Part shown: in pieces, positions 4,600 through 25,661 of the stretch
Layout of the letters: each line of letters starts with the position of its first letter
How positions within the stretch are numbered: the stretch's first letter is position 1
Origin: Candidatus Aminicenantales bacterium
GTDB lineage: Bacteria > Acidobacteriota > Aminicenantia > Aminicenantales > UBA8522
DNA: 64,000 bases
Reading direction: 5' to 3'
Assembly: GCA_049682755.1 (NCBI GenBank)
Contig: JBAUIH010000209.1
Location: 208 to 64,207 of the forward strand
Program-made: the position numbers and the translations under genes
The notes under the pieces: model-generated
Databases searched by the model: none
The model's input: the letters and a program-made list of their open reading frames with translations, nothing else
What the model was told of the DNA's origin: nothing

Positions 4600-4788
4600 G
4601 CCGTCTCCCCGACCCAAACGGTGACCGAAGAATATCAACTCGCGGGCGCTGAGTCAAATGAAAATCCCTGAAAAGATACTTCCTTTATAGAGGAATACGG
4701 GAAATTCTTAACGGAAATTGGGGAATCGCTGAGTGTCCGGTTCTGACCTATTATTCTGAATGATTAATGAAAAATGACGAAAAAGATA

Positions 4789-4825
4789 TCCTCTCCCCTG
4801 GCGGGAGAGGATGGAGGAGAGGGGG
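4789..4825 (+). repeat. 37-bp REP-like hairpin repeat, copy 2
   Basis: tcctctcccctggcgggagaggatggaggagaggggg. It is a direct repeat of 1465-1501, and the two copies bracket the kinase gene. Confidence 0.8.
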
Positions 4826-4863: not shown

Positions 4864-7800
4864 TTAGGTTGCTTTCTTAATTGGCCCACCCGGTCCCGCT
4901 GGAAACCGGGTTCTGATGTATTCGGCGGCGCTTTCGGGGCTGAGCTTCACGCTCCCGGGCCCGCTCCGCACATAAAAATCGCCCTCCGGATTCTCCTCTG
5001 TTTGCTTCCATTTAAGAAAGACCGGCTCCGGGCTGCGCTGGCAGGTGACGAGGCAGACGGTCTTTCCCTGGACGACCTGCGTTTTGGGGTCGATACACGT
5101 GCTCGCCCGGTCCCCCAGTCCGTTCCGGACGACCTGAGCGAGGTGGCGCATGAACTCGTCGTCATTATCAAACTGGTCGGCCTCAACCCCTGTGACCTTT
5201 CCGCTATCGCTCACTCCGATCAGGAGGTCGCCGCCCGCAGTGTTCAGGAACGCGGCGATCGTTTTGAGCACGGCATGGGTGATGACTTTGTCGTCCTTAC
5301 GGTTTTCCTTGAGATTCCAGCGCAGAGTCGACTTAAACTCCAGAGTTTTCGATTCTCCGCGTTTGATCAGCTCTTCCGCCTGCCGATGGGCCCGCAAATA
5401 ATGATCGAACAGGAAGTCCTTGAGCGCTTCCCCGAAGGCCCGGTCGTCGGTGATCCGTTTGTAGAGGTCGAAGTTCGAATCCACGATCTCCTGGATGACA
5501 TCCTCGACTTTATGATCGAAAGTCAGGCGGATATTCTCGCGGGTATTGACCCGGGCGCTGGCGTCGAGCGCCGCATCGCCGTCGAGTTTGGCCAGGATCT
5601 GCCCGAGTGTCACCCGGTGCTCCGGTCCGAGGTTCAATCCGAAACGCTCGTTCAGCTCGGCAATGATCAAGGAAAGCGGCTCGAGATCCTCAGGCGCCTC
5701 CCCGTAATGCTCCTTCGTCATCACCGGCTGAAGCTGTTCTCCTTTCCGCTCAAGAGTTATAGCGCCGCTTCCGGTCTGCTGGATGCGGTAAGACTCCATG
5801 TCGATATTCTGCTGGACCTCGCGAGGCAATGTATCCGGGTCGGCGGGGACGAGCCGCCGCAGATGGCGGGCGAAGACATAAAGCTTCTCGAGGTCCGCAT
5901 CGGAGAAAGTCAGAACCTGGGCCAGAAAAGCATAGAGCCGCACATAATCGGTGAGCTGGCCACGGAAATCATGCTGCTCCTCGTCCGAGATTCCGGCAAA
6001 GCGTGTGCTCACGGGAGCCAGAACAGCGTAAAGCTGATCCTGTGTGGTCTTCTTATCAAAATAGGCTTTCGCGAACAAAGCGACGTCGGCGTCGGTGAAA
6101 ACCGGGAAGGCCAGCAGCCGGCTCTGAATTTCGTAAAGCAGGTGCGGGTCGGTCGCTTCGGACAGGAGAGTGGTCTCATAATAGGGCTGGAAGGCCGCCT
6201 GAATGTCATCCGCCTCGTTGGCGAAGTCCAGCACCAGAGTGCCGCTTTTCTCCGGATAAATCCGGTTCAGCCGGGACAGGGTTTGGACCGCATTCACCCC
6301 GCCGAGCTTCTTGTCGACGTACATCGTATGCAGAAGGGGCTGGTCGAACCCTGTCTGAAACTTGTTGGCGCAGATAAGAAAACGATACTCGGGCTTCCCG
6401 AATTCCTTGGCGGTCTGCCGCTCTCCGATCGTCCGTTCTTTCCCGGCGGAGTTCATCCCCGATTCAGTGTAGGCCCGTCCCCCGTCCGGCACACTTCCGG
6501 AGAAAGCCACCAAGGCCTTGAAAGGGTAGCCTTTCTCCCGTAGATACCTGTCCGCGGCCAGCTTGTAGCGCACGGCATGCAGGCGTGACCGGGTCACGAT
6601 CATCGCCTTGGCTCTTCCGCCGATCTCGTTCTGGACCTGGGCGGCGAAGTGCTCCACCATGATCCTCACTTTCTCGTTGATGGCGTGCGGATGGAGCTCG
6701 ACGAACGACTTGAGCAGGTATTCCGCTTTGCTTTTATCGTAACGGGGATCGTCTTCGATCTTCTTGAGAAGCCGCCAGTAGGCCTTGTATGTCGTGTAGT
6801 TCCTGAGGACATCGAGAATGAAGCCTTCCTCGATCGCCTGGCGCATGCTGTAAAGATGGAACGGCTCGAACTTTCCGTCCGTCCTCTTGATGCCGAAGAT
6901 TTCGAGCGTCTTCGCCTTCGGAGTCGCCGTGAAAGCGAACATCGAGAGGTTGGGCAGGCGGCCGCGCTTCTCCATCTCGGCCAGGATAGTGTTCTCGAGC
7001 TCCTCCTCGGGGGTTTGGGCGCCCGCTTCTTCCTTCTCCGCCTCTTCGAGGTTTCCTGAGGCCAGAACGGCCTTGAGGCTCTTCGAGCTTTCGCCCGACT
7101 GCGACGAGTGCGCTTCGTCCACGATGACGGCGAAGCGATGGCCGGGGAGCTCGCCGATCTCGCTCACGATAACGGGGAACTTTTGCAGGGTGGTCACGAT
7201 GATCGTCTTTCCCGACTCGAGGGCTTGTTTGAGTTGGCGGGAGGTCGTATCGATATTCTCCACAACACCCAGCGTCTGCTCGAACTGGCGCATGGTCGTC
7301 TGGAGCTGCCGGTCGAGGATGCGGCGGTCGGTGACGACGACGATCGAGTCGAAAACCCGCTTATCCTCGTTGTCATGAAGCGTCGAGAGCCGGTGGGCGA
7401 GCCAGGCGATGGTGAAACTCTTGCCGGAGCCGGCCGAATGCTGGATAAGGTAGCTCTCACCGGCCCCGTATTGGCGGGCGTGGGCGACCAGCCTCCGCAC
7501 GGCATCGAGCTGCTGATACCGGGGGAAGATCAGGGAGCGCTTTCCGGTCTTGCGGCCCCGCTCGTCCTCTTCTTCGATTTCGTGGACAAACTGGCGGATG
7601 AGGTCGAGGACACTGTCTCTGGACCAGATTTTCTCCCATAGATAGGCAGTAGGATAGCCTTTCTGCGTCGGCGGAACCGGCGGGTTTCCCGCCCCACCGA
7701 ACTTGCCCTGGTTGAAGGGCAGGAATCGCGTCCTCGGTCCGGCAAGTTCCGTCGCCACATAGACAAGGTCCGGGTCCACGGCGAAATGAGCCAGGCAGCG

Positions 7801-8421
7801 CCCGTAGGCGAGGAGCGGCTCCCGGGGATCCCGGTCGGACTTGTATTGCCTGATGGCGTCCTCGACGGTCTGACCGGTAAGCGGATTCTTGAGCTCGGCG
7901 GTGAAAATCGGGATGCCGTTCAGGAAAAGGACCATGTCGAGAGTCTGAATGCTCTTTTCACTGTACCGGAGCTGACGGATTACGGAAAAGAGATTCGCCG
8001 CGTGAAGCCGCCTGATCTCCTCGTTTAGCCCGCTCGCCGGCCGGAAGAAGGCCAGCTTGAATTTGCAGCCCGAATCCTTGATCCCGTTCCGCAGCACATC
8101 CAGCGCGCCGCGCCGCCCGATCTCCCGCGATAGGCGTTTGAGGAATTGTTCTTTAGCCGAGGCGCCGTAAGGCTGCTTGAGCCTTTCCCATTCCTTCGGC
8201 TGCGTCGCGATGATAAAGTCGATGACGTCGCGCGGAATGAGGCATAGCGACTGGTCGTATTCTTCAGGCGGCCGCTTTCGATATCCTCCGGGAGGGGATT
8301 CTCCGTAAGGCGGCGCCGTCTCGCGCACACCGACCATCTCTCCAGCGCAGGCATCCGGCCCGTGCCGAAGCAGCCCGCATTCAATGGTTTTTTCAAAACT
8401 TCGCTCGGAGACTTCCGGCAT
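4864..8421 (-). CDS. hsdR: Type I restriction enzyme R subunit with extra C-terminal AlbA_2 (Schlafen-type) domain
   Basis: N-terminal PD-(D/E)xK nuclease (DMVLFLNGIPIFTAELK). SF2 helicase motifs (HSAGSGKS, VIVDEAHSSQSG, QTGFD). The last ~166 aa (KRGESKTLEFKS...AAFLNTAGGDLLIGVSD...YVRSGPGS) match the AlbA_2 pattern. Confidence 0.9.
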   Translation of the reverse strand: MPEVSERSFEKTIECGLLRHGPDACAGEMVGVRETAPPYGESPPGGYRKRPPEEYDQSLCLIPRDVIDFIIATQPKEWERLKQPYGASAKEQFLKRLSREIGRRGALDVLRNGIKDSGCKFKLAFFRPASGLNEEIRRLHAANLFSVIRQLRYSEKSIQTLDMVLFLNGIPIFTAELKNPLTGQTVEDAIRQYKSDRDPREPLLAYGRCLAHFAVDPDLVYVATELAGPRTRFLPFNQGKFGGAGNPPVPPTQKGYPTAYLWEKIWSRDSVLDLIRQFVHEIEEEDERGRKTGKRSLIFPRYQQLDAVRRLVAHARQYGAGESYLIQHSAGSGKSFTIAWLAHRLSTLHDNEDKRVFDSIVVVTDRRILDRQLQTTMRQFEQTLGVVENIDTTSRQLKQALESGKTIIVTTLQKFPVIVSEIGELPGHRFAVIVDEAHSSQSGESSKSLKAVLASGNLEEAEKEEAGAQTPEEELENTILAEMEKRGRLPNLSMFAFTATPKAKTLEIFGIKRTDGKFEPFHLYSMRQAIEEGFILDVLRNYTTYKAYWRLLKKIEDDPRYDKSKAEYLLKSFVELHPHAINEKVRIMVEHFAAQVQNEIGGRAKAMIVTRSRLHAVRYKLAADRYLREKGYPFKALVAFSGSVPDGGRAYTESGMNSAGKERTIGERQTAKEFGKPEYRFLICANKFQTGFDQPLLHTMYVDKKLGGVNAVQTLSRLNRIYPEKSGTLVLDFANEADDIQAAFQPYYETTLLSEATDPHLLYEIQSRLLAFPVFTDADVALFAKAYFDKKTTQDQLYAVLAPVSTRFAGISDEEQHDFRGQLTDYVRLYAFLAQVLTFSDADLEKLYVFARHLRRLVPADPDTLPREVQQNIDMESYRIQQTGSGAITLERKGEQLQPVMTKEHYGEAPEDLEPLSLIIAELNERFGLNLGPEHRVTLGQILAKLDGDAALDASARVNTRENIRLTFDHKVEDVIQEIVDSNFDLYKRITDDRAFGEALKDFLFDHYLRAHRQAEELIKRGESKTLEFKSTLRWNLKENRKDDKVITHAVLKTIAAFLNTAGGDLLIGVSDSGKVTGVEADQFDNDDEFMRHLAQVVRNGLGDRASTCIDPKTQVVQGKTVCLVTCQRSPEPVFLKWKQTEENPEGDFYVRSGPGSVKLSPESAAEYIRTRFPAGPGGPIKKAT

Positions 8422-9582
8422 TCAAATCTCCGTCCCTTGCCTGAGAATATCCAGGCATTTTTCATACGCGTACAATCTGTTTCTCTTCCGTCCCGTGACC
8501 TCCTTCACGATTCCGATTTTTTGAAGCGAATCAAGGACGCTGGTCACGGTAGGCGGTGAGATCTTCGTTTTGTCTGACAGGAATGGAATATTCGCGATGG
8601 GCCGGCCTTGAAGGACCTCGTGTATCCGAAGAGCGGAGCTGGCCTTTCGTCCAAGGTCGCCGATCTTTTTCCGGTCCTCCTCAGCGACTTCGTTCAAACG
8701 CCTGGCTGTCGTCACCGCTCCTTCGGCCATCTCCCGGACTCCGTCGACGAAAAAACGCAGCCACGTTTCCCAGTCCCCTTCCTGACGGACTTTCATCAGG
8801 AGATCGAAATATTGCGACCTGTTCTGTTTGAAATAAAGACTGAGATAAAGAAGCGGGTGCCGAAGGACCCCCTCATGGCAAAGGAGCAACGTAATCAGCA
8901 GGCGGCCTATCCGGCCGTTGCCATCGCTGAAGGGATGGATTGTCTCGAATTGCACATGGGATAGGGCAGCCTTGATCAGGATTGGGATTCTTTCGGGAAT
9001 ATCATGAAGGAATTTCTCAAGCGCGCTCATGCATTCGGCCACGCGGCCGGGTGGAGATGGGACATAAATGGCGTTGCCCGGCCGGGTTCCTCCGATCCAG
9101 TTCTGATCGCGGCGAAACTCGCCGGGATTCTTGTCGCTCCCGCGGCCTTTCGCCAGCAGAACTCCATGAACCTCACGAATCAGGCGGTTGGATAGGGGGA
9201 ATCCTTCCCTGAGCCTTTTTAAGCCATGGTTCATTGCCGAGACATAGTTTGAAACTTCCACGACATCGTCGAGCGGGACTCCAGGGGCCTCTTTTAGTTC
9301 GAAGAGCAAGAGATCGGACAGCGATGTCTGTGTCCCCTCGATTTGAGATGAAAGCACCGCCTCTTTGCGTATATACATGTATAGGAAAAGATCGATATCG
9401 GGCAGAAGAGTGGCAACGCTGTCGAGCCGCCCGAGAGAGAGAAGAGCCTGATCGATGGCATCCCGAAGCGAGAAATCGATAACGAGAGGAGGAATCGGCG
9501 GTAGGGGGCGGGGAACAAAGGCTCGGACGGTTTCCTCACCGGTTTGCCTGACGATGTATTCCCCTGTTAATCCTCGATTCAT
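8422..9582 (-). CDS. Fic/DOC family protein, class II (Fic_N + Fic + C-terminal wHTH; SoFic-like layout)
   Basis: Active-site motif HPFSDGNGRIGRLL. Intramolecular inhibitory motif SSQIEG (S-x3-E-G). C-terminal wHTH-like ISPPTVTSVLDSLQKIGIVKE. The stop TGA directly abuts the hsdR ATG. Confidence 0.9.
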   Translation of the reverse strand: MNRGLTGEYIVRQTGEETVRAFVPRPLPPIPPLVIDFSLRDAIDQALLSLGRLDSVATLLPDIDLFLYMYIRKEAVLSSQIEGTQTSLSDLLLFELKEAPGVPLDDVVEVSNYVSAMNHGLKRLREGFPLSNRLIREVHGVLLAKGRGSDKNPGEFRRDQNWIGGTRPGNAIYVPSPPGRVAECMSALEKFLHDIPERIPILIKAALSHVQFETIHPFSDGNGRIGRLLITLLLCHEGVLRHPLLYLSLYFKQNRSQYFDLLMKVRQEGDWETWLRFFVDGVREMAEGAVTTARRLNEVAEEDRKKIGDLGRKASSALRIHEVLQGRPIANIPFLSDKTKISPPTVTSVLDSLQKIGIVKEVTGRKRNRLYAYEKCLDILRQGTEI

Positions 9583-9598: not shown

Positions 9599-9669
9599 TC
9601 CGGTCTAATTAAAGTTTCTTTAATTAGACCGGAGCTACTTAAAGGATAACGCCTTTTCCTTTAATAAGC
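9599..9669. promoter_or_regulatory. Operator-like module: 35-nt perfect palindrome plus TTATTAAAG-type half sites, 16 nt upstream of the fic ATG
   Basis: tccggtctaattaaag-ttt-ctttaattagaccgga (9599-9633), then cttaaaggataa and cctttaataagc. The module is collinear with the first ~65 bp of the 415-bp elements at 10481 and 13521. Confidence 0.5.
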
Positions 9670-9704: not shown

Positions 9705-10322
9705 TCATACACTCCAGCTGTATAACAAAGCCTCCAGATATGGTCTCATGACGTTCCAAACCCGGCATATCTTGGCATATTGATAGACCTCGTCGGAGGT
9801 GGCCTTCTTCTCACGAAGACATTCCCTGGCGGCTTCGATGGCGGCCTCAAGGCCGATACGATTTCGGAACTTGAAGCAGTCAGCGACGGTTTTCGCTGGG
9901 CTGTAGATCTTGACTGCGACTCCCTCTATCTGATGTTCATCGATCCCTTCGGAAAAGGACGGTCCGGAGAATCGAACGATTGACACCGGAGGATAGGAAA
10001 GGTGCGGTTGAGCGCTCCCCCTTCTGAGTGCCAGCCAGACCTTCCGGGGAAGTTGGGTGCCGATGTTATGATAACGCAGGGCGGAGGTCAAGCAGATGAC
10101 GCCCTTCGGAATTCGCTTTCCGATGATCGCAAAATTATGAAACTCGGTGATTTCCGAATCAGCCAGGACGTAGAGACCCCTTTCTGGACGAACAAGGAGT
10201 CCCTTGGTCACCAGCCTGCGGGCATACTCTGGATGAATATTCCGTTCAAGAAGATCCTTAATGCGGATTGTCCCCAGTTGTTTGGCCAGCTCGATGATGA
10301 CCTGCTCCGTGGATTTTTCCAT
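9705..10322 (-). CDS. AbiEi-like (type IV TA antitoxin family) wHTH protein, copy 1; no AbiEii partner
   Basis: ~205 aa, with RGLYVLAD, VICLTSALRYH and TVADCFKFRNRIG motifs typical of AbiEi_4/COG5340 proteins. I prefer the ATG at 10322 (the ORF track starts at TTG 10331). Confidence 0.75.
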   Translation of the reverse strand: MEKSTEQVIIELAKQLGTIRIKDLLERNIHPEYARRLVTKGLLVRPERGLYVLADSEITEFHNFAIIGKRIPKGVICLTSALRYHNIGTQLPRKVWLALRRGSAQPHLSYPPVSIVRFSGPSFSEGIDEHQIEGVAVKIYSPAKTVADCFKFRNRIGLEAAIEAARECLREKKATSDEVYQYAKICRVWNVMRPYLEALLYSWSV

Positions 10323-10329
10323 GTGTAAC

Positions 10330-10357
10330 AATATATATATATATCAATAAATGTCAA
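10330..10357 (-). promoter_or_regulatory. Sigma70-like promoter of abiEi-like copy 1 (TTGACA-N16-TATATT), near-leaderless
   Basis: The minus strand reads TTGACAtttattgatatatatatatattgttacacATG. The -10 ends 7 nt before the ATG, there is no SD, and an (AT)7 tract occupies the spacer and -10 region. Confidence 0.5.
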
Positions 10358-10480
10358 TACTTTTACACGTGATCGAAGTTTGGAAGAGCGCAGGCGAATT
10401 TGACAAATCCTCGGTAATCATATGCATTTACCTGGGAAATGCAAGTGCTCCTTCAGGATAAGTCGGGGCTTTTACTGGCG

Positions 10481-10895
10481 TTATTAAAGATACTTTAATA
10501 AGCCCACTGCTTATTAAGGGATAAAGGCTTATCCTTTAATAACGATTCTGGATAGAACTGCCATCACTTGCGTACAACTGATGGCAGTTTTATCCGGAGG
10601 TGTCCAATTTGCCCTCTTAACTTTGCGCATGCTGAACCCTGCTTATCGCCGGGGCGGAAAGCATTCGGCTATCAGACGCTCAGGACAAGGTCCCACTGCG
10701 ACCATGAAAATCGAACACTCAGTGATGGATTTTCATGGTATGATTCGACAGTTTTATGTTTCGATTTTAGCGTCGACCGCGACTGAAACATGGCCCCACA
10801 TCCAGCTTTCTCCTCATAAGCATACTTCCTAGGCCCCAACTTGTTACTTGTCAGAAGGAATGCGTTAGCCTAAAATTAAACTGCAGTTTGAGGGC
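10481..10895. repeat. 415-bp conserved non-coding element, copy 1
   Basis: Gapless alignment to 13521-13935. Perfectly conserved blocks include tatcctttaataacgattctggatagaa and ctgcgaccatgaaaatcgaacactc. There is a 12-bp-stem hairpin at 10701-10739. No conserved ORF is present. Confidence 0.8.
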
Positions 10896-11046
10896 ATATC
10901 TTAATGAATTATGCAAAGGAGCAATCTCCCCCCTATTTTGATTTTTGCACGGAGATACGCGATGCCTAAGCGTACGAATGAGTTCCAGCAACTGGTCATG
11001 AGAATGTATAAACAGATGGCGGGTCCCGGCGACGTTGAACCCGGCC

Positions 11047-12099
11047 TTAGGTTTTTTTGCCTGATCCGAGCCAGCCTTGTTCGGCAAGTCGTGTCCACGC
11101 AATATGAATGTGCTCAGGTTTGAACATTTTCTGCTTCCTCTCGTTCCATTTATGAACTGCTCGAACGGCTTCATTAGGATTCGAAACCGTGGTTTCCCCA
11201 TGAACCGCTATCCAATGCACCGACGAGAGAAGCTCCAATCCGTACGGAGTTTCAAACCCTTCAATCACCGTCGCGACCCGTTTTAACCTGTCGGCAGAAG
11301 CTTCGTTACCCGAAAGGGATTTGTCTGACTCTTTAATCGCCCCCGGCAAAAGCTCGATCTCGACATCAGGTTTCTGGGTGTCCCCGTATCCTCTGATAAA
11401 GTGTCCTTCCATAATCTCGAGAACTTTGTTCAGGTTGTGGGCATAGGGTCCAAATAGTCCGGCTTCATATCTCAATCGAAGGGGCTCTCCCGCTTCCTGC
11501 AGGAAGTATGCCATTTTCTGAACTTCAAGGAGGGTTAGGCGATAGGCCAATTGGGCATATTGATGGATTAGCCTGATGAGCAGCGCCCTGGCGATTGTCA
11601 TCCTTGGCCGCTTAGTGCGAACGGGCATAGCCCTGGCATCAGGCGTGCCAATGGGCTCAAATAGCATTACACGTGTGTTTGGCAAAGCAGCAAATGCTCC
11701 CTCTATAAGGGGCTTCACGTCTTTCCAGTTTAGCCCTCCAAGCCCGCATCCTAACGGAGGTAGAGCAACAGAAGAAATGCCGAGCTTTCTAATCTCTTCG
11801 ATAAGAGATCTTAATCCAATTCGAACATCTTCGATTTGTGACTTTGCCCTCCAATCGCGCTTAGTCGGGAAATTGACAATATATTTTGGATTGACCAGCG
11901 AACCGGTAGAGAAGACAAATACCTTCCCCGGCCTTATTCCGTTCGCCCGGCAGGCTCGTTCGTAAGCTTTAAAGTTATCGGGGAAGGCTTTCTTAAATTG
12001 AAGGGCTATGCCCTTGCCCATATATCCGACGCAATTGACTGTGTTTACTAATGCCTCCGCATCGGTTTCAATCAGATTCCCCCGAGTGATCTCGATCAT
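11047..12099 (-). CDS. darG: DarG antitoxin (macrodomain ADP-ribosyl hydrolase + C-terminal DarT-binding region)
   Basis: The N-terminal macro domain MIEITRGNLIETDAEALVNTVNCVGYMGKGIALQFKKAFP...PPLGCGLGG is followed by a ~190-aa C-terminal domain. The gene starts 13 nt after darT. Confidence 0.85.
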   Translation of the reverse strand: MIEITRGNLIETDAEALVNTVNCVGYMGKGIALQFKKAFPDNFKAYERACRANGIRPGKVFVFSTGSLVNPKYIVNFPTKRDWRAKSQIEDVRIGLRSLIEEIRKLGISSVALPPLGCGLGGLNWKDVKPLIEGAFAALPNTRVMLFEPIGTPDARAMPVRTKRPRMTIARALLIRLIHQYAQLAYRLTLLEVQKMAYFLQEAGEPLRLRYEAGLFGPYAHNLNKVLEIMEGHFIRGYGDTQKPDVEIELLPGAIKESDKSLSGNEASADRLKRVATVIEGFETPYGLELLSSVHWIAVHGETTVSNPNEAVRAVHKWNERKQKMFKPEHIHIAWTRLAEQGWLGSGKKT

Positions 12100-12112
12100 T
12101 TTGTTGCCCCGA

Positions 12113-12757
12113 CTAATAATACCATTCCGGTTTGATAATTACCATTGGGCGGAGCGATAAAGGGAAACTTCCCAGGATTCGCTCCACCGAGGATTTTATC
12201 CTTGTATTAATAACGGCAATTTTCTTGATAAATTGAAAATCGCATCGCCGATGTACCAAAAACTCAGCCTGTTTTCGGCGCTGCCGATCCATATCGTCTA
12301 CTGTATCATTCCAAGCAGTGGCATAAATTGTATTCCAATCTAATCTTCCAAGATCGGCAAGGTCGTCATACCAACTTGTATAGAAAGCGATGCCGTGCCC
12401 ATCAGAAAAAACAAAGGGGGTGCCGCCTTGATGAATGCTTTGGGCTGTAGAAATTAGATAGATCAAAGGCTCCTGGCCTCCCTGATAATCGGCAATCCTG
12501 CCCGTATGGAGTTGATATAGCATCGGAGATCGTGGGCCGAAATAAAATGAAACGTAATCATGGATTACGCCCCCTGACCCACACGGAATTGTTGTTACCT
12601 GCCTGAGTTGCTGTATTTCTATGTTATGGATTGCCCTATAGAGTAGTCTATTTTTTGGCATGTAGTTGGGCGCATGGAGCGCTCTTCTACGTAAGCATAC
12701 GGACAGATTGTCAACGTGTATGAAACGGAAAATTGGGGTCGGGATAGGAACAGTCAC
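12113..12757 (-). CDS. darT: DarT (DUF4433) ssDNA thymidine ADP-ribosyltransferase toxin
   Basis: IFRFIHVDNL..., YVSFYFGPRSPMLY and RRKQAEFLVH motifs are characteristic of DUF4433/DarT. GTG start with GAGG upstream. Confidence 0.85.
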   Translation of the reverse strand: MTVPIPTPIFRFIHVDNLSVCLRRRALHAPNYMPKNRLLYRAIHNIEIQQLRQVTTIPCGSGGVIHDYVSFYFGPRSPMLYQLHTGRIADYQGGQEPLIYLISTAQSIHQGGTPFVFSDGHGIAFYTSWYDDLADLGRLDWNTIYATAWNDTVDDMDRQRRKQAEFLVHRRCDFQFIKKIAVINTRIKSSVERILGSFPLSLRPMVIIKPEWYY

Positions 12758-12849
12758 TTCATTGCCTCATGTCCTATGTTGATTCAGCCTGTGCAGGGAG
12801 CAGAAATCAAACCGGACAGAATGGGCCATGTTCGTCGGATTCCGAACGC

Positions 12850-13458
12850 TCATTGAATGGCCTCAAGGTAAGGGAGCATGACCTGTTTCATCCGCAGGAG
12901 CGCGGCATAGTCCAGGATCTCGGAAATCGTGCAGACGCCTCGACGCTGACTAAGCCGCAGGGCTTCGACAGCGATATCGATTCCGATCCTGTTGCGGAAC
13001 TTGAAACAATCCACGATGGTTCGGGCTGGAGCGTAGATACGGACCTTGAATCCATCGACATCGTGAATTTCGATCCCAAGCTTATGAATTTCGCGAGAAA
13101 ATCTGTATATCCTCATAGGAGGAAAATCCAGGCGTGGGGTTTTTGTCCCGCGAGGAAGGGCCATGTCGACCCAATGGGGAACTTGAGTTGTTATTCCGTG
13201 AAAAGACAGTGAAGAAATAAGACAAATAACCGCGCCCGGAACTCGGGCGGCTACCACTGAGAGGTCGGGATTCCCCAGGTCAGGTAAGTCGGCCAGCCGA
13301 TACAGGCCGCGGCTCAGAGGAACGATCCGGCCGCTTGCGCGCAGCGAGTAGAGACTTCTCGGGTGTATGCCCTCGGCAATGGCCTGGGATGTCCGGAGAG
13401 TACCCCCTTGCTCTCGGAACATCTTTTCTGCCTCTTCTTCACGTGTCCGGTATCGCAT
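12850..13458 (-). CDS. AbiEi-like wHTH protein, copy 2; no AbiEii partner
   Basis: Same family as 9705-10322 (RGLYRLAD, VICLISSLSFH, TIVDCFKFRNRIG). About 43% aa identity to copy 1 by hand alignment (76/175). Confidence 0.75.
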   Translation of the reverse strand: MRYRTREEEAEKMFREQGGTLRTSQAIAEGIHPRSLYSLRASGRIVPLSRGLYRLADLPDLGNPDLSVVAARVPGAVICLISSLSFHGITTQVPHWVDMALPRGTKTPRLDFPPMRIYRFSREIHKLGIEIHDVDGFKVRIYAPARTIVDCFKFRNRIGIDIAVEALRLSQRRGVCTISEILDYAALLRMKQVMLPYLEAIQ

Positions 13459-13466
13459 AATGGATA

Positions 13467-13496
13467 ATTATGCCATCACATATATATAATTGTCAA
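13467..13496 (-). promoter_or_regulatory. Sigma70-like promoter of abiEi-like copy 2 (TTGACA-N18-CATAAT), near-leaderless
   Basis: The minus strand reads TTGACAattatatatatgtgatggCATAATtatccattATG. The -10 ends 8 nt before the ATG, and the spacer again contains a TA-repeat tract. Confidence 0.45.
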
Positions 13497-13520
13497 CCTT
13501 TTTATCCATTTCAAATTAAC

Positions 13521-13935
13521 CAATTAAAGAAACTTTAATAAGCCAGCTGCTTATTAAAGGATGCCGACCTATCCTTTAATAACGATTCTGGATAGAAATG
13601 CCATCACTTATGCATAAGTGTAGCCATTCTTATCCGGAAGCGTCGGAGTTGGGCTTTTAGCTTTGCTAATGCTGCACCCGGGTTACCGCCAGAAGGGCGA
13701 GTATTTGGCCATCGGACGCTCAGGATAATGTCTCTCTGCGACCATGAAAATCGAACACTCCGCGATGGATTTTCATGGTATTGACCAAATATCTTAGGTG
13801 TCGATTTTAGCGCTAGCCGCGACTGAAACGTGGCCGAGCATACACCTTTCTCTTCTCAATTGGATATTCAGGCCGGCGACTTGTTACTTGCCATATAACC
13901 TGGGTCATCCTAAAATGATACTGCAGTATGAGGGC
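13521..13935. repeat. 415-bp conserved non-coding element, copy 2
   Basis: See 10481-10895. The hairpin lies at 13741-13779, at the identical offset (+220). The operator-like module 13521-13583 lies only ~27 bp from the abiEi-2 -35 box. Confidence 0.8.
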
Positions 13936-14125
13936 CTACCGGATGGAATCGTCCGAAATATAGAGCCCCCAAGGATAGGAAAACCGGACCGGCAATGAAT
14001 TCCCTCCTATTAACGAGCGGTACGGAAGTGGCCTTGGCGCGGATAATATGGATAACAAATTATTAGGGCTCCATTATCTCGGTATTACTGACTGCTGCAA
14101 TCAGCTGTGATAGGATTAATTCAAA

Positions 14126-14815
14126 ATGAGCAGGCAGCTTACAGCAGAAGAGGCCAAACGAAGCTTTATCGAATCCATGGGCGATCCTCTGGGAAGGCTA
14201 TTTTATGCATTATGGCAGGAATTGGCAGGGCTTTATGCGAAGTGGGAGGAATACCTCGTGCTTTACGGAACAAAAGAATCACGAATAAATCTTCTGAACA
14301 AAGCCGCTCCCCTCTTCTTTCGAATAATCCAAGATGTTCTTTGGGAGGACATAATTCTCCACATTGCGCGGTTAACTGATCCTCCAAAATCCTCTGGAAA
14401 GGCCACCCTCACAATTAGAAGGCTTCCCGATTTGGTAAAGGATGGCAATACAGCTCAGGCTTTAAGGGGACTTATCAATATCGCGATACAGTCATCAGAA
14501 TTTTGTCGCGATTGCCGGAATCGGTATATCGCGCATAGAGACCTCAACCTTGCTCTTGAGAAAGAGATTGTTCCCTTGAAGCCCGCTAGTAGAAAAAAAA
14601 TCAAAGAAGCTCTCAATTCCATTGCCGAAGTGCTTAACGCGGTTTCGCAACATTATACAGATTCGGAGATGACATTTGATATTGGTGAAGATCCCGAAGG
14701 AGCGGTTTCGCTCCTATATGTAATCGATGATGGATTGAAAGCAGGAGAAGAACGTAAAGAACGTATAAGTAGCGGTAAATATCGGAAGGACGATTTTAGT
14801 CCTCGCGATTTGTAG
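14126..14815 (+). CDS. HEPN-domain protein, AbiU2-like (putative abortive-infection RNase)
   Basis: LLNKAAPLFFRIIQDVLWEDIILHIARLTDP, then CRNRYIAHRD (R-x5-H, the HEPN Rx4-6H motif). This pattern matches what I recall for the HEPN_AbiU2 family. Confidence 0.55.
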   Translation: MSRQLTAEEAKRSFIESMGDPLGRLFYALWQELAGLYAKWEEYLVLYGTKESRINLLNKAAPLFFRIIQDVLWEDIILHIARLTDPPKSSGKATLTIRRLPDLVKDGNTAQALRGLINIAIQSSEFCRDCRNRYIAHRDLNLALEKEIVPLKPASRKKIKEALNSIAEVLNAVSQHYTDSEMTFDIGEDPEGAVSLLYVIDDGLKAGEERKERISSGKYRKDDFSPRDL

Positions 14816-14995: not shown

Positions 14996-15850
14996 ATGGG
15001 GCATCATTATGTACCTCGAAAATATCTGAGAGGTTTTGCGGATCCGAACAATCCTGGAAAGATTTGGATGTATGATAAGCATTCCCATCGGTTCACGCAT
15101 GCTAGCATTATATCCGTTGCTCAAGAGGCGAGTTACTATAGCGAGGATGCAGAGAGGCAGCTCAGCGAGTTTGTCGAGGGTCCTGCCCATAAGGTTCTTA
15201 AGAAGCTTCGATGCGGGGATTCTATCAATGATAACGAGCGTATGAGGCTTGCGCTATATGTAGCGACAATGTTGATGAGGGTGCCGCGGCGACGCAGAAA
15301 AGCTTTCGAGATGCTTCCCAGCGTGCGCGAGGATGTAATCAACCGAGCTACTCTTATTATTACTCAATGGGCTAAAACCAGCATGGTCGCCCCCGCACTT
15401 AAGCTTAAGAGATTTGCTGAACTAGAGCGAGCACGCGAAAAGCTGCGAGCCCAGCCACCGGAAGAGGTTGTAAAGAAGATTCGGGCTCCTTGGCCAAGTG
15501 AGAAAGTATTAGCGTGCGTTATCGGTATGACTTGGCGGATCGCGTCGGCCGGTGACGCCGGGTTTTTTCTCACCTCGGATAATCCAGCATTTTTTTTCGA
15601 AGCCTATGGACTCGGCAGGCCCGAATCAGAGCTGACATTTCCTCTTGCATCTGAACTGGCACTGCTAGGTAGTTGGCAGGGAGCGCCTAATGAAACAATT
15701 TTTGTCAAAGCGAAGCCATCGCTCATGAAGGAAGTCAATCGTCGAATCGCAAGCGGCGCTGAGCGCTTTGTTTTCTATCGCGGCCGTGAAGACTGGGTGG
15801 CTCAGCTTGCGGAAAGGCGGAACCTCCGCCTTAATCGCATTATTTGGTAA
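14996..15850 (+). CDS. DUF4238 family protein
   Basis: The N-terminal HHYVPRKYLRGF is the DUF4238 signature, and FFLTSDNP occurs later. Coordinates are taken from the ORF track. Confidence 0.65.
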   Translation: MGHHYVPRKYLRGFADPNNPGKIWMYDKHSHRFTHASIISVAQEASYYSEDAERQLSEFVEGPAHKVLKKLRCGDSINDNERMRLALYVATMLMRVPRRRRKAFEMLPSVREDVINRATLIITQWAKTSMVAPALKLKRFAELERAREKLRAQPPEEVVKKIRAPWPSEKVLACVIGMTWRIASAGDAGFFLTSDNPAFFFEAYGLGRPESELTFPLASELALLGSWQGAPNETIFVKAKPSLMKEVNRRIASGAERFVFYRGREDWVAQLAERRNLRLNRIIW

Positions 15851-16254
15851 ATGGAGTGCTGGCTAATATTATCCGCTTCTCGCCCACCACGCGTTAAAAG
15901 AAAAGCCAAGTTTCTTAGAAAAGAGGATAAATTATCTCCTCAAGGAAGTGAGCGCCCCAATTTATCAAGATAACTAGCGTTGCTGGTACTTCTAACGGGG
16001 GAGGCGAAAAGCTGCGGTAATTTATCCCAAATCAGGGCGATTATAAAAAGTAAAATTCTAGAGCCCTCTACACGAGAGTTTGCGTTCTGACATATATAGT
16101 TCTAAGATAGTATGGAAGAGGAGGGTTATTATAACAATGCAGTTTTATGAAAAACGGTTTTCCAACTTAGGGGTCAGTCCATTGGACTAAAAAGCGTCCC
16201 GGCTATTTCTATTAGTGCAGGACGCAAGCATCCCATAGACCGGAGGCATATACA

Positions 16255-16449
16255 ATGACAGCAGCACCCAAAATACAAGGATTACCTGACGTACCCACCC
16301 TGGTGTTCGAGACGTTTCTTGAGGCACTTCAGCAGGCGGGGGCGTCAGATGAGTTGATCATTCGGCTTCGCAAGACTCTTACGGAGGAAAAGAAATTCAC
16401 CGAGCGCGCCTTAAAGGATACTGTCCTCCCGGAGGAGTCACTAACATGA
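16255..16449 (+). CDS. Small hypothetical protein (64 aa), translationally coupled to the downstream ATPase
   Basis: GGAGG lies 8 nt upstream of the ATG. The stop overlaps the ATPase start (ATGA at 16446-16449). Helical, acidic composition; I recognise no family. Confidence 0.5.
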   Translation: MTAAPKIQGLPDVPTLVFETFLEALQQAGASDELIIRLRKTLTEEKKFTERALKDTVLPEESLT

Positions 16450-18902
16450 TTAGGGTCGAATCTATCACAATCAGTGAGTTTCGCGGAATCCGAAACTTGA
16501 CGCTGGATCTTAACGAAAAGAGCTTTGCTGTTTGTGGCCCAAACGGCACGGGAAAGAGCGGGGTGGTTGACGCCTTGGAGTTCGCGCTGACCGGAAATGT
16601 ATCCCGGCTCTCTGGAGAGGGCAGAGGTGAAGTTTCCCTGAAACAGCACGGACCCCACGTGGACAGACGGAATGATCCTGACAGGGCCCGCGTGAGATTA
16701 AAGATCACAATCCCAAGCCTGAATAAGTCCGTCACTATCGAGCGCAGCTTAAAGAATCCGGGGGCTGCCCAAGTGGCGCCGGCCGAGCCCTTAGTATTTG
16801 ACGTACTTCGTCAGGTTGAGGCGCATCCCGAGATTGTGCTTTCGCGCAGGGAGTTGATACGCTACGTTCTTGCTACGCCCGGCAAACGCGCCGAGGAAGT
16901 TCAGGCGCTGCTCCACCTTGACCAAGTCGAACAGGTCAGAGGTGTTCTGCAGAAAATCGCGAATGCCTGCGAGAAGCAACTAGGTCCTCTGAGCGCAGCG
17001 GCCAAAGAAGCCGGCGATAATTTGTTGCGTGCACTGGGGATTTCCGAATTGGTAAAGGAAAAGGTGCTGGCCGCGACAAACACCCAGCGGGCGAGTCTTG
17101 GTCTCCCTCCACTGACAGACCTGACTGAAACAACATCCCTCAAGGACGGGATGGCGACACCGGCACCGGCTCAGCCTCGCCGCATCTCCAAGGTCCAAGC
17201 CCTCACTGATATTCGAGCCACCCGTGAGGTTCTCTCAGAAATTGCCAGCGAGGAAACAAGAAACCTTGTTACTGAAGTGATATCTGATCTCAATACGCTT
17301 GCTGCGGATCCAGCAATTGTTGCAGGCTTGAAACGAGAAGCTTTCTTTGCCACCGGGATGGAACTGGCTGAGACAGGAGCCTGTCCTCTTTGCGATACAC
17401 CATGGGACCTTATTGAACTAAAGAAATACATTCAGGCCAAGATCGATTATATGAAAGAGCTATCGCGTAAGCGCGGAGCGGCAGAAAAAAAGATTGCTCC
17501 GCTTATCGTAACACTGCGCAAGGTGAAGGCTGGAATGGAAACACTGATCGGTTACGGCGAGTTCGCAACTCCGACGTTGGTTATGAAAACTGCCCGAGCC
17601 TATACTAGCGATTGCGCAAATGCGGTCGATAGGCTAACGGCCTTACTTCCACTTGATGAAGCGACCAAGGTGCTCAGGAATGTGCCGATCATCCAGCAAA
17701 CTGTTCTAGACTCCATAAGAGAGCTTGAACAAGTGGTTGTTGCGCTCCCTGAGCCAACAAAGCTGGACGCAGCAAGGGATTGGCTTGCCGTCGCGCAAGA
17801 GAGACTTGAGAAATGGCGCGATGTCATGCGGAAAAATAAGACCGCCAGGGAACAAGCCCAGAGAACACGACAAGTATCTGATATTTATGCTGCCTCCAGC
17901 GATAAAGTTCTCGCAGGGATCTATGCAAGTGTGGAAAAGGACTTTTCTTTGCTTTACAGCTTCCTTAACCGCGAGGACGAAGAAAAGTTTAATGCTAAAC
18001 TAATTCCGTCATTAGGAAAGCTCGGCTTCGATGTTGACTTTTACGGACGTGGCTTTTTCCCGCCCGGTGCTTATCACAGTGAAGGCCATCAAGATAGCAT
18101 GGGCGTATGTTTATACCTAGCATTGATGAAACACCTCCAAGGCGAGAACTTTACTTTGGCTGTGCTTGACGACGTCCTTATGTCGGTGGACACGGGCCAT
18201 CGGCGGGAGGTCTGTTCCCTATTAAAGAAGGAATTTCCGAACACTCAATTCGTAATTACCACACATGACCCCATCTGGCTGCGTCACCTGAAAACCGAAG
18301 GTATTATTGGAGGAAAATCATCGGTGCATTTCAGAAAGTGGAGCATTAACCAGGGGCCGACACGATGGGATATGCGGGATGTATGGAGTGAGATCGAGGA
18401 ATCCATAGAGGAAAACGACATACGTGCAGCCGCCTCACTCCTCAGGTATTACCTTGAGTATGAGTCGGCTGAACTATGTCAGAGGTTGCGCGCCCTAGTT
18501 GAGTTTCGTGGCGATGCACAATATCAACTTGGCGATCTTCTTCCCCCAGCGATCATTCGGATGCGCAATCTTTTTCGTCAAGGGAAGGCTGCTGCCAATT
18601 CCTGGAACCAGAAGGAGATAATCGAACAGCTTGCCACACGCGAGGCCGAATTCGCTAAGGTGGCGACGGCCTCAAGAGTTGAGCAATGGCAAATGAACGC
18701 ATCGATACACTATAACTCCTGGGACAACCTATGCAAAGAGGACTTTGTACCTGTAGCGAAAGCGTTCCGGGACCTCCTCCAAGGATATATGTGCCGGGAT
18801 TGTGGAGAGTATCTCCGTGTCTCCCCAGAACGTAATGCAGGCGAGTCGATCCGTTGCGAATGCGGGAAAACTACGTTTAACCTCCTTGGAAAAAGCGGGT
18901 AG
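16446..18902 (+). CDS. SMC/Rad50-like ABC ATPase with CxxC zinc hook and C-terminal R-x3-E...H + 4-Cys ribbon tail (RloC-like)
   Basis: Walker A GPNGTGKS (aa 31-38). Signature-like YHSEGHQDS (543-551). Walker B LAVLDDVLMSVD (571-582). ITTHD (604-608). CPLC at aa 313-316, midway through the helical insert. Tail motifs LLRYYLEYE, NASIHYNSW and CRDC-x17-CEC. Confidence 0.85.
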   Translation: MIRVESITISEFRGIRNLTLDLNEKSFAVCGPNGTGKSGVVDALEFALTGNVSRLSGEGRGEVSLKQHGPHVDRRNDPDRARVRLKITIPSLNKSVTIERSLKNPGAAQVAPAEPLVFDVLRQVEAHPEIVLSRRELIRYVLATPGKRAEEVQALLHLDQVEQVRGVLQKIANACEKQLGPLSAAAKEAGDNLLRALGISELVKEKVLAATNTQRASLGLPPLTDLTETTSLKDGMATPAPAQPRRISKVQALTDIRATREVLSEIASEETRNLVTEVISDLNTLAADPAIVAGLKREAFFATGMELAETGACPLCDTPWDLIELKKYIQAKIDYMKELSRKRGAAEKKIAPLIVTLRKVKAGMETLIGYGEFATPTLVMKTARAYTSDCANAVDRLTALLPLDEATKVLRNVPIIQQTVLDSIRELEQVVVALPEPTKLDAARDWLAVAQERLEKWRDVMRKNKTAREQAQRTRQVSDIYAASSDKVLAGIYASVEKDFSLLYSFLNREDEEKFNAKLIPSLGKLGFDVDFYGRGFFPPGAYHSEGHQDSMGVCLYLALMKHLQGENFTLAVLDDVLMSVDTGHRREVCSLLKKEFPNTQFVITTHDPIWLRHLKTEGIIGGKSSVHFRKWSINQGPTRWDMRDVWSEIEESIEENDIRAAASLLRYYLEYESAELCQRLRALVEFRGDAQYQLGDLLPPAIIRMRNLFRQGKAAANSWNQKEIIEQLATREAEFAKVATASRVEQWQMNASIHYNSWDNLCKEDFVPVAKAFRDLLQGYMCRDCGEYLRVSPERNAGESIRCECGKTTFNLLGKSG

Positions 18903-19781: not shown

Positions 19782-21146
19782 CTAGGAAAGATCACGGACG
19801 TCGATCTTTCCCGTCACAGCTGCAGAAACGATTGCCGTGCGGTATTCCTTGAGGCGGTCGATTGCTTCCCGAATCGTTGACACGAGTATAGCGATCCTTG
19901 TCGTTTCTCTATTAAGAAAAGATATTATTGTCCCTTGTTGTGCGGCTGACGGCAGAGGTATTAAGGTATCGGCGATCAACTCGATTTCTAAGCTCTCGAC
20001 TGTTGCGCCCTCTTTTCTCCAGGCGATTAAGAGAGGAGATTGCATGCCTGAAATAAAGTAAGCCAAGTATTCCGGGACAACTGCGGCATCAGCTTGCAAA
20101 GCCTTAAGGTCTTGATTTAGCGTGATCTCAGAACCCGATAATCCGACGGGAATACTATGATTAAGGATTCCAGAGCGAACCACGATTAGCACGGTGCCAG
20201 CGGCAATAATCCTTGTCGCACTCCTGGCGACAGCTTCTTCAGTAATCTTATCGATAGTATCCGAGACGATCCATCTCTTCATGTCCTTCGGTGAAACCCA
20301 TGGAATTTCACCTTGCCAATAGTCTAAATTATCTTTGCTCGGAGTACCACCTCCCAAGAAACGAACGATATGTTTCAGCCTTATCATCCGCCAGCCAGCA
20401 GGGATCTTCCCCAGCCATTCGATGCCGGAGTCTTTCATGGGGACGTTTGGGTCGAGGCCTTTGGTGACGGCTTGGGTGATGAGGGCAGTGCGCTTTTCCT
20501 GATGGAGTTCGATCAATCGCTCCTTTTTCGCTATGAGCGCATCGATCTTCGCCGCCTGGCCATTAAGGAAGAATACGATGGCCTTTTGTTCTTCTATTGG
20601 GGGTAGCAGTACAGGGAGGGATTCTACCTTTTCAGCGGTAAAATGACTGATCGTGGCTCTACTGCAGAGCATATCTATGTAGCCTGAGTGTTTGAGTGCA
20701 TAGAGCCAATAGTATAGGTAATCTGTAAGGTCTATTCCTTTTGCGCGGACCCGATTGATTGCATTTTGATAGTAGCATGGCATAATTTCGCCGCGCCAGA
20801 TTGCCGATCGACCTACGTCTCCACCTTCGCTTATAAGAAGATCTCCGGCGCAGAGCGCTAACCCGTCCTTTTCGCTTGAAGAGATCCACATGTGCTTCAC
20901 ATCTTCTATGCTTACTCCATTCCAGGCAAGATTCGCAGCACGGAGGTAGGGCTCTAGCGAGTCATCGGACCTTAGAGGTTCATTTTGAAGCATTTTTCCT
21001 AAGTTGACGTCAAAACTCCTTTTTAAAGGAGCCATGGTCCAGCCGCTCGGGATCTCTGTTAACCACTCGGCGCCGGAATCTTTGTATTCTGGGTACGGTT
21101 TAAACCTTCGGCCGGTAATTTTGGGAAAAGATGGTGCTCCCCCCAT
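19782..21146 (-). CDS. hsdS: Type I R-M specificity subunit
   Basis: Two TRD-like halves are separated by the conserved helical spacer LPPIEEQKAIVFFLNGQAAKIDALIAKKERLIELHQEKRTALITQAVTKG. A second copy of the spacer lies at the C-terminus (LPLPSAAQQGTIISFLNRETTRI...AAVTGKIDV). Confidence 0.9.
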   Translation of the reverse strand: MGGAPSFPKITGRRFKPYPEYKDSGAEWLTEIPSGWTMAPLKRSFDVNLGKMLQNEPLRSDDSLEPYLRAANLAWNGVSIEDVKHMWISSSEKDGLALCAGDLLISEGGDVGRSAIWRGEIMPCYYQNAINRVRAKGIDLTDYLYYWLYALKHSGYIDMLCSRATISHFTAEKVESLPVLLPPIEEQKAIVFFLNGQAAKIDALIAKKERLIELHQEKRTALITQAVTKGLDPNVPMKDSGIEWLGKIPAGWRMIRLKHIVRFLGGGTPSKDNLDYWQGEIPWVSPKDMKRWIVSDTIDKITEEAVARSATRIIAAGTVLIVVRSGILNHSIPVGLSGSEITLNQDLKALQADAAVVPEYLAYFISGMQSPLLIAWRKEGATVESLEIELIADTLIPLPSAAQQGTIISFLNRETTRIAILVSTIREAIDRLKEYRTAIVSAAVTGKIDVRDLS

Positions 21147-25600: not shown

Positions 25601-25661
25601 AAATATCCATTATTGATATCCATTCCAGATGGCGTTACAATGGCGGTAAGGGAATAGTGAA

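Follow-up and report, generated by a model that had tools for sequence, protein, structure and literature searches.

What is a hairpin-rich, non-coding string of 415 bp doing twice in one defence island, each time upstream of an AbiEi-like gene? The two copies (10481-10895 and 13521-13935) lie in a 64,000-nucleotide (nt) stretch of a Candidatus Aminicenantales bacterium (assembly GCA_049682755.1, contig JBAUIH010000209.1, positions 208 to 64,207), which we call the window and whose genome is Aminicenantes-like. An earlier note on this DNA had interpreted the repeat as a selected cis-regulatory region or structured RNA that travels with the AbiEi-like gene. Our analysis agrees with a non-coding, partly selected and cis-regulatory sequence, but neither with a single structured RNA nor with a single travelling unit. 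We consider it fairly probable that the repeat controls a cassette headed by AbiEi from the space between its divergent genes, and that it is composed of operator palindromes, the stump of an ATPase gene and a portable promoter, in a defence hotspot between hsdS and hsdR. As such it is an ordinary kind of feature in an unusually legible patchwork and not a new class of RNA.

Compared without gaps, the two copies are identical at 312 of 415 positions (75%), and a MAFFT alignment places no indel within the element, as had been reported before. Immediately outside, the same offset yields 7-18 matches per 50-nt window, which is the random level; the edges are thus sharp and the duplication does not reach into the genes. 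On the 3' side conservation runs on for about 45 nt past position 415, through a Shine-Dalgarno site and an ATG, and the first 62 nt are present a third time at 9605-9668 (nhmmer E=4.5e-7). Six modules can be distinguished by element offset: B (1-62), C (63-125), M1 (126-215), D (216-262), M2 (263-355) and E (356-415). The three sequence blocks quoted earlier as perfectly conserved are so in the alignment, and a 12-bp hairpin at offset +220, accatgaaaatc...gattttcatggt, is common to both copies with differences in the loop alone. A second hairpin, formerly placed near +85, spans about +65 to +120 in both copies; its apical sequence differs and the changes compensate. The AbiEi_4 proteins of the two adjacent genes are 41-43% identical in amino acids (43% over 186 aa, the value given earlier), and the genes themselves 50% identical in nucleotides and 39% at third codon positions in a codon-aware comparison.

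The element is not coding, as the earlier note had held: in both copies every one of the six frames is interrupted by four or more stops, mismatches are spread over the codon phases without bias (36/38/29 overall; 31/28/24 among the 83 mismatches of the distal 309 nt, close to the 84 hand-counted before as 28/26/30), and the peptides of the short open reading frames (ORFs) that follow D show no conservation. Two further candidates were rejected. A pair of template and variable repeats of the kind found in diversity-generating retroelements is contradicted by the alignment, in which the mismatches are not adenine-specific, and by the lack of a reverse transcriptase. A retron, a type III toxin-antitoxin RNA or an omega-RNA finds no reverse transcriptase, ToxN, TnpB or IscB gene nearby. 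Searches with blastn returned no match to the element in PLSDB plasmids or INPHARED phages, and an IMG/VR scan with the 14-mer CGATTCTGGATAGA gave chance matches only.

Further copies do exist in related contigs, which reveal a mosaic. With profiles built from both window copies, the full string was recovered outside the window in one locus only, L228 (metagenome contig Ga0315289_10014827; positions 6-414), while at least eight other loci carry parts of it. In L081 (metagenome contig Ga0307380_10012024) one copy spans positions 7-268 (L081b, with the order A-B-C-M1-D, where A is a further module discussed below) and the other positions 7-143 (L081a, B-C and an E-like part). L089 covers 87-414, that is half of C followed by M1-D-M2-E, and L246 covers 185-412, with M1-D-M2-E behind a HEPN/MNT pair. 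Five loci (L308, L086, L337, L341 and L343) have the first ~125 nt, B-C, in some cases together with the last ~60 nt; of these modules, L308, L337 and L343 have B-C alone. An nhmmer search of 80 genome loci that encode AbiEi homologues in many phyla (L001-L080) found no full copy, but B-like pieces in two Aminicenantes loci and a C-like palindrome in one Nitrospiraceae locus. The element is therefore a feature of the hotspot of one lineage and not a general companion of the AbiEi family. Only the first ~125 nt (B and C) accompany AbiEi genes, while D and E belong elsewhere, so the earlier idea of one unit travelling with the gene does not hold. Another recurrent palindromic module, TTGTCTT(T/C)(C/T)ATA..AAGTCAATAAT..CTTGTCTTATATG(A/G)AAGAC, occurs in L081 (4600-4880), beyond D, and on the minus strand of L341 (100-160), between two C copies, and adds to the patchwork of the hotspot.

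Module D (10696-10742 in copy 1, 13736-13782 in copy 2) is identified by its occurrence elsewhere. Its copy 1 sequence, ACCATGAAAATCGAA-N9-atGGATTTTCATGGT, belongs to a palindromic operator-promoter of an ATPase family with a DUF4143 domain. An exact scan with the pattern GAAAATCGAA-N12-GATTTTCATGG found at least 120 metagenome contigs, from soil, sediment, groundwater and marine samples; the corresponding scan of IMG/VR returned one contig, in which the remainder of the element is not present. Among the matches listed, 50 loci carry the pattern on both strands four bases apart, which makes a perfect palindrome with 14-bp arms, and 79 of 120 adjoin an ORF of the type MI(E/D/K/Q)RP...GPRQxGKTT with the Pfam domains AAA_14 and DUF4143. 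About one third of these listed matches have no adjoining ATPase ORF and may be orphan sites. In the native layout the arm ends in CATGG and is directly followed by a TAnnnT hexamer, then 6 nt, then ATG; the ATG lies 12 nt past the arm in 19 of 30 non-redundant cases among the matches listed, which implies a leaderless mRNA. TTGACA-like sequences are often found in the loop, and in this arrangement one arm is situated upstream of the -35, the other in the spacer, with the -10 abutting the arm. The ATPases that share the site are 36-99% identical (median 66%, again among the matches listed). DUF4143 has been classed in the PD-(D/E)XK nuclease superfamily (PMC3424549); among the papers searched we found no description of the nearly invariant DUF4143-ATPase promoter palindrome ACCATGAAAATCGAA-N9-TTCGATTTTCATGGT.

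Both D copies of the window match this search pattern exactly, and their right inner arm reads atGGA against TTCGA, as in many native copies. Native D has the promoter-occlusion layout of the promoter-embedded operators that control autoregulated defence and toxin-antitoxin genes. Unlike these, the window copies are orphaned: the window encodes no DUF4143 ATPase, no ATPase gene stands on either side of D, and in place of the native -10 with an ATPase ATG ~12 nt downstream there are decayed starts only. To judge from this layout, the D copies of the window are orphan relics of the ATPase operator-promoter and apparently not working members of the family.

The spacers on either side of D point in the same direction. 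M1 (10606-10695 and 13646-13735, minus strand) is a fast-drifting spacer, the 3' part of which resembles a decayed 5' coding end of the ATPase gene; in L246, L089 and L228 a DNA profile of ATPase 5' regions aligns past the palindrome on the reverse strand, over ~66 coding nt (47.6 bits in reverse versus 31.7 forward in L246). The spacing of -10, six nucleotides and start is kept in these three loci, but ATT now replaces the ATG, and stops have arisen. On the forward side a start of the type ATGATCAAGCGTCC (MIKRP) is fused straight to the palindrome, and M2 (10743-10835 and 13783-13875), the least conserved spacer (63%), begins with the ATPase-like ATGAT(T/C). We read M1, D and the start of M2 as the probable stump of a deleted AAA_14-DUF4143 ATPase gene.

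The other palindromes are related to the AbiEi genes. Each abiEi gene of the window has a proximal promoter-operator palindrome outside the repeat and on the minus strand. The one of AbiEi-1 (10321-10370) is ~50 bp long, includes a -35 TTGACA and a -10 TATATT and directly adjoins the likely ATG at 10322; that of AbiEi-2 (13461-13510) reads ATGGATAAAAAGGTTGACA...GTGATGGCATAATTATCCAT. The promoters predicted there by a consensus scan (10357-10330 and 13496-13467, each 11/12) have both hexamers overlapped by the palindromes and lie between the element and the genes, so that the repeat is indeed located upstream of the abiEi promoters, as the earlier note had stated. The arrangement is widespread: a palindrome with 20-nt arms and at least 16/20 arm matches is present in 18 of 77 distant AbiEi loci compared with none in shuffled sequences, and the best inverted repeat of this arm length in the 77 loci lies within ~50 nt of the start codon. 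Arm motifs of the GTTACAA..TCGG type are common, and arm sequences vary by clade. Since the palindrome reaches the ATG, the abiEi genes of the window are probably leaderless. In AbiEi genes of many phyla a palindrome 0-50 nt from the start codon implies that these would be leaderless or near-leaderless and autoregulated.

Characterised AbiEi operators have a comparable form. In Streptococcus agalactiae the promoter PabiE is overlapped by two inverted repeats of 23 bp (IR1 and IR2) with 3 bp between them, TGTTGCTTTTA-N27-TAAAAGCAACA (PMC3985639), and the Rv2827c promoter of Mycobacterium tuberculosis has two tandem inverted-repeat pairs (IR1-IR4) within 131 bp (PMC7319586). The window palindromes are likewise long (20-23 nt), imperfect and upstream of an AbiEi_4 winged helix-turn-helix gene with a span of ~50 bp, their outer ~11 bp match best, and the proximal ones overlap the predicted -35 and -10. 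This form, a pair of ~20-23 nt within ~50 bp, is shared by the proximal palindromes and by modules A and C. Module A, TTGACAAATCCTCGGTAAT-N7-ATTTACCTGGGAAATGCAA, is a second AbiEi-type palindrome, found in copy 1 (10400-10444) but neither in copy 2 nor in L228. The operators of L039, L040 and L074 are similar to it, and in L081b it immediately adjoins the start of an AbiEi gene from another clade, as the proximal operator of that clade.

Module C (10543-10605 and 13583-13645) is an imperfect palindrome of ~50 bp, in copy 1 CTGGATAGAA...TTATCCGG, and its copy 2 is a paralogue of the AbiEi-2 operator at a distance of ~128 bp. C is the best non-self match of this operator on either strand of the window (35/50 for copy 2, 31/50 for copy 1), whereas shuffled windows give 25-29 matches and 32 once. 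It thereby parallels the second palindrome of the Rv2827c promoter, being of the same size and paralogous to the proximal operator. As a general AbiEi operator C can be rejected, as GGATA...TATCC occurs in only 1 of the 77 distant loci; C is specific to the AbiEi-2 clade type. Module B (10481-10542 and 13521-13582, with the partial third copy mentioned above) consists of interlocking AT-rich palindromes on CTTTAATAAG and GGATAA and shares the GGATAA/TTATCC core with C and with the AbiEi-2 operator type. With up to one mismatch, CTTTAATAAG occurs 12 times in the window compared with 1.7 expected, and 10 of the 12 sites are in three clusters. We conclude that B and C are probably conserved DNA palindromes related to AbiEi operators. 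Unlike the characterised operators, however, they lie 60-220 bp from the abiEi start codon and over no predicted promoter, and they are conserved beside clades with different proximal operators; as binding sites they are putative. A role as insulator, terminator or junction sequence is possible as well.

The last of these functions leads to another explanation of the whole, in which B, C and D would serve recombination or form junctions (as repeats of the REP/BIME kind, homology handles or sites of a site-specific recombinase) and so allow cassettes to be swapped, with regulation secondary. The modules do lie exactly at cassette boundaries, 5' as well as 3' of genes. B on its own, always with one orientation, immediately follows the stop codon of hsdS (L004), of abiEii (L003) and, in the window, of abiEi-1, where the partial copy separates the AbiEi-1 stop (9705) from the Fic start (9582); in B copy 2 a hairpin with a T-run (13559-13533, minus strand) scores as terminator-like. 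Breakpoints between loci fall at module edges, L308 has a half-copy of C between the abiEi stop and D, the same B+C stands beside four AbiEi clades, and two copies in one genome have been homogenised. The ATPase-like starts on both sides of D also suggest a palindrome-mediated rearrangement. Yet neither an integrase nor a transposase nor a REP-associated tyrosine transposase (RAYT) is encoded among the Pfam-annotated ORFs between 4.8 and 23.7 kb, the B motifs are confined to the island instead of being scattered over the window, and the layout of D and of the proximal palindromes is clearly that of promoters. A tyrosine-recombinase core at the apex of hairpin C was also rejected, because L089 breaks within the left arm and not at the centre.

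The known repeat families that come closest differ in the same respects. Repetitive extragenic palindromes and bacterial interspersed mosaic elements (REP/BIME) of enterobacteria are imperfect palindromes at gene ends, in alternating orientation, which form mosaics with short motifs and are often terminator-like. The window modules are likewise imperfect palindromic units in mosaics at gene ends. However, their copies are limited to one defence island, with B motifs in three island clusters and C and D in the two copies only across the window, no RAYT was seen, and several units contain promoter hexamers. For an integron attC array, a reading of the sequence found no boxes of the GTTRRRY type and no attC-like R/L boxes, and the modules are found 5' of genes as well as 3' of them, unlike integron cassettes. 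On balance we regard the junction explanation as unlikely.

Module E (10836-10906 and 13876-13963, plus strand) supplies the predicted promoter of the control region. The consensus scan predicts sigma-70 promoters TTGTCA-17-TAAAAT at 10848-10876 (score 10/12; -35 at 10848-10853, -10 at 10871-10876) and TTGCCA-17-TAAAAT at 13888-13916 (-35 at 13888-13893, -10 at 13911-13916), which supports the former view of a cis-regulatory sequence that points at plus-strand genes. A Shine-Dalgarno sequence follows in both (GAGGG at 10890-10894; 13930-13934). In an alignment of eight E sites the hexamers are conserved and are succeeded by ACTGCAGTTTGAGGG, the Shine-Dalgarno sequence, and 8-9 nt further on by ATG(G)AATC. 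E is found ahead of at least six unrelated types of cargo, and a diverged third promoter of this type (TTGCGT-N17-TAAGAT, 16080-16108, plus strand) precedes an operon for a 64-aa protein and an 818-aa SMC-like ATPase. The leader ORF behind E has a conserved start, ATGGAATC (MES..), and differs in length: 6 codons in copy 2 (13943-13963), 21 in copy 1 (ATG at 10904; 10904-10969) and 37 in L089 (~3489-3602). It may be what is left of the 37-aa gene that opens the SMC-like ATPase operon, or an upstream ORF with a regulatory role. Whereas E of copy 2 lies upstream of AbiU2 and DUF4238 genes, E of copy 1 leads to nothing recognisable; the truncated gene start at 10962 proposed before yielded neither a Pfam match nor a homologue among the loci retrieved.

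A structured RNA would have to make use of the same palindromes. According to this explanation a plus-strand non-coding RNA (ncRNA) or long leader of ~415 nt regulates the defence cargo, possibly with alternative pairings at the +220 hairpin. The folding energies are low (plus-strand z-scores of -6.1 and -4.1), and with its length of ~400 nt, strong predicted hairpins and a position beside mobile and defence genes the element does resemble the large ncRNAs in Rfam. A weak promoter-like site on the plus strand (13461-13490) lies ahead of copy 2, and the downstream segment TCGATTTT is kept in both window copies and L246. The minus strand folds about equally well (-4.8 and -3.5), though, as is expected for DNA palindromes. 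Rfam 15 at the gathering threshold finds in the whole window only a tRNA located elsewhere, and at E<=10 in the interval of 9.5-14.2 kb only mir-8512 on a palindrome (E 0.77 and 3.4), a chance match. From six copies RNAalifold retains the C and D palindromes and two short helices only, with a consensus of -17.6 kcal/mol versus ~-135 kcal/mol for single sequences and an unfavourable covariation term of +2.3. Conserved long-range structure as in the large Rfam ncRNAs is thus not seen, and the modules are found apart and in other orders. Furthermore, the native +220 hairpin is situated upstream of the transcription start, as a promoter-operator, mismatches in the D palindrome are of all kinds without preference for wobble pairs, and no conserved plus-strand promoter precedes B, where copy 1 has an extra 90-bp module.

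The compensating changes in hairpin C, which also favour an RNA, are ambiguous. Dyad symmetry of B and C is kept in ten loci, with 84.6% of cells paired and five pairs changed on both sides, a number reached in 9 of 500 shuffles. Symmetric operator half-sites would behave like an RNA stem in this test, so the double changes do not separate the two. On the plus strand G-T cells exceed A-C cells by 29 to 8 in these hairpins, with 14 of the 29 derived from two inherited columns. The single structured RNA of the earlier note is not supported here, and we consider an ncRNA or long leader very improbable.

The apparent conservation of the element deserves a separate explanation, as it had been described as better conserved than the genes. 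As a pattern this is correct (75% versus 50% nucleotide identity), but selection on the whole does not follow from it. Between the window copies the identity is 0.82 in B, 0.78 in C, 0.71 in M1, 0.94 in D, 0.63 in M2 and 0.75 in E. M1 falls into two lineages, the window copies with L081b (67-72% mutual identity) and L228 with L089 and L246 (88-96%), which share 47-54% with each other. The AbiEi protein of L228 is 89% identical to AbiEi-2 and 40% to AbiEi-1, but M1 of copy 2 is only ~50% identical to that of L228. Since the window copies are more alike (63-71%) in the presumably neutral M1 and M2, their shared history is more recent than that with the orthologous site. The history of the modules is therefore independent of the adjacent genes, which indicates that the string was duplicated or gene-converted within the genome while the alleles of abiEi and of its proximal operator were replaced. 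The better conservation thus appears to result largely from mosaic ancestry and homogenisation within the genome, and real constraint, as far as the alignments indicate, is confined to palindromes and promoter elements. The selection postulated before would accordingly apply to the nearly invariant palindromes and not to the spacers, which drift.

The same data bear on the possibility that nothing in the repeat has a function, i.e. that it is debris of promoters, operators and genes, duplicated locally, with a conservation that reflects recency and gene conversion. The free drift of M1 and M2, which are 47-54% identical between lineages, is consistent with decay, as is the -10 beside D, which is degenerate in most copies, the copy 1 promoter E without a recognisable gene and the missing DUF4143 ATPase. 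Debris would hardly be expected, however, to keep the D arms invariant in all six copies, and D at 94% between the window copies against 63-71% in its flanks; the site seems to be retained. B+C remains at about 80-85% in every comparison, with a plateau of about 81-84% across loci, while M1 ranges from 47% to 96%, and the hexamers, Shine-Dalgarno sequence and ATG of E are preserved before different cargo. We therefore give a functionless origin little chance.

Several points weigh against the control region. Its promoter and operator assignments all depend on consensus and position, and the comparisons comprise only 6-10 distinct copies. In contrast to the characterised AbiEi operators, B and C have no promoter predicted over them in the consensus scan, and the placement of B after stop codons looks more like a terminator or junction element. 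B+C is 75-90% identical beside the four AbiEi clades, which share only 35-50% amino acid identity; as it is equally conserved beside clades with differing proximal operators and recognition helices, binding of AbiEi can explain its conservation in part only. At the protein level the match of the ATPase relic is weak past the first ~7 codons (E 0.2-1). The excess of G-T cells hints weakly at a possible fold of the plus strand, as RNA or single-stranded DNA.

The control region that we favour would work at the DNA level, as a string of separable modules. B and C would be auxiliary AbiEi-type binding sites or insulators, comparable to the second inverted-repeat pair of the Rv2827c promoter. The ATPase stump would consist of a palindromic operator and a few dozen decayed codons, and with the palindrome arms still intact the D site is probably still bound. 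E would fire away from abiEi into whichever cargo follows, which for copy 2 is AbiU2 and DUF4238. The intergenic string would have been duplicated or homogenised in the genome, and different AbiEi alleles with their own proximal operators swapped in beside it. The comparisons directly show where the modules begin and end, what D is, the matches to promoter consensus, that C and the AbiEi-2 operator are paralogous, and the mosaic pattern of identities. For the proteins that bind B, C and D, and for the activity of E, we infer this much from sequence and position. The orphan operators C, A and D might moreover be kept by selection, either in a shared circuit between cassettes that gates E or as homology handles for exchange, or both, which is a tentative and rather doubtful suggestion.

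The surroundings are those of a defence hotspot. An island of ~11 kb with low GC content (0.39-0.52 compared with 0.55-0.61 in the flanks) occupies a slot in a type I restriction-modification operon, with hsdS on one side and hsdR on the other. Read along the minus strand, the order is hsdM (21555-23657, minus strand), hsdS (19782-21146, minus), the SMC-like ATPase of 818 aa (16446-18902, plus), the 64-aa gene of the same operon (plus), DUF4238 (14996-15850, plus), AbiU2 (14126-14815, plus), copy 2, AbiEi-2 (12850-13458, minus), DarT and DarG (both minus; AbiEi-2 to DarG span 11047-13458), copy 1, AbiEi-1 (9705-10331, minus), Fic/DOC (8422-9582) and hsdR (4864-8421, minus), whose product has a C-terminal Schlafen/AlbA_2 domain; the two AbiEi_4 genes are assigned by Pfam. 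The Fic stop abuts the hsdR start (8421/8422). Unlike AbiE systems, neither AbiEi gene of the window is followed by an AbiEii toxin, and Fic and DarT-DarG take the places. Relatives have AbiEii, alone or with a DUF4143 ATPase, in this position. This suggests that AbiEi-type regulators are paired with exchangeable toxins.

The nearest AbiEi relatives are from metagenome-assembled genomes of Candidatus Aminicenantes and from sediment or groundwater metagenomes. Their contigs have a common backbone, hsdS ... AbiEi-AbiEii-(DUF4143 ATPase)-hsdR, and differ in the cargo on the divergent side: an operon for 37-aa, 64-aa and SMC-like ATPase proteins, DarG-DarT, a TIR protein, an M78 peptidase with DUF4411, a MauJ-like protein with a ClpP-like protease, or HEPN/MNT. 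The prrC gene inside the EcoprrI hsd locus is a case of a defence or toxin gene embedded in a type I restriction-modification operon. The window is similar in that Fic, AbiEi, DarTG, AbiU2, DUF4238 and the SMC-like ATPase stand between hsdS and hsdR, with cargo that varies among relatives; this likeness, known here from gene positions, concerns the surrounding locus and not the 415-bp element.

Two other repeats were observed around the region. A GC-rich repeat of ~48 nt, CCGCTCACTCCTCATACGGGTTTCTCGGGCCACTGCCCCTCGCCTTGG, is located at 548-595, 612-659 and 25517-25564 (also 680-704 / 25584-25608). It is 96% identical between sites 24.9 kb apart, has a degenerate tandem copy beside the first site, and its sites bracket the restriction-modification and defence region with some neighbouring genes. 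A hairpin-containing repeat of 46 nt (...CCTCTCCCCTGGTGGGAGAGGATAGAGGAGAGGGGG) at 1456-1501 and 4780-4825, with 87% identity, flanks a 1043-aa ORF just downstream of hsdR and looks terminator-like.

With this interpretation a candidate for a new large ncRNA is removed, and the repeat illustrates that a conserved, hairpin-rich non-coding sequence can arise from stacked operator palindromes, gene stumps and homogenisation within a genome. The locus shows clearly how a type I restriction-modification operon can take up interchangeable defence cargo in one slot, with the same portable promoter before each set. AbiEi genes of many phyla have a ~50-bp palindrome at a probably leaderless start. The most interesting residues are the pattern of orphan operators and the widespread palindrome of the DUF4143 ATPases. 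The palindrome provides a handle on the regulation of an uncharacterised ATPase family in very diverse metagenomes; and if the orphan operators form a circuit, repressors encoded in one cassette, or by ATPase genes elsewhere in the genome, would gate the cargo promoter E.

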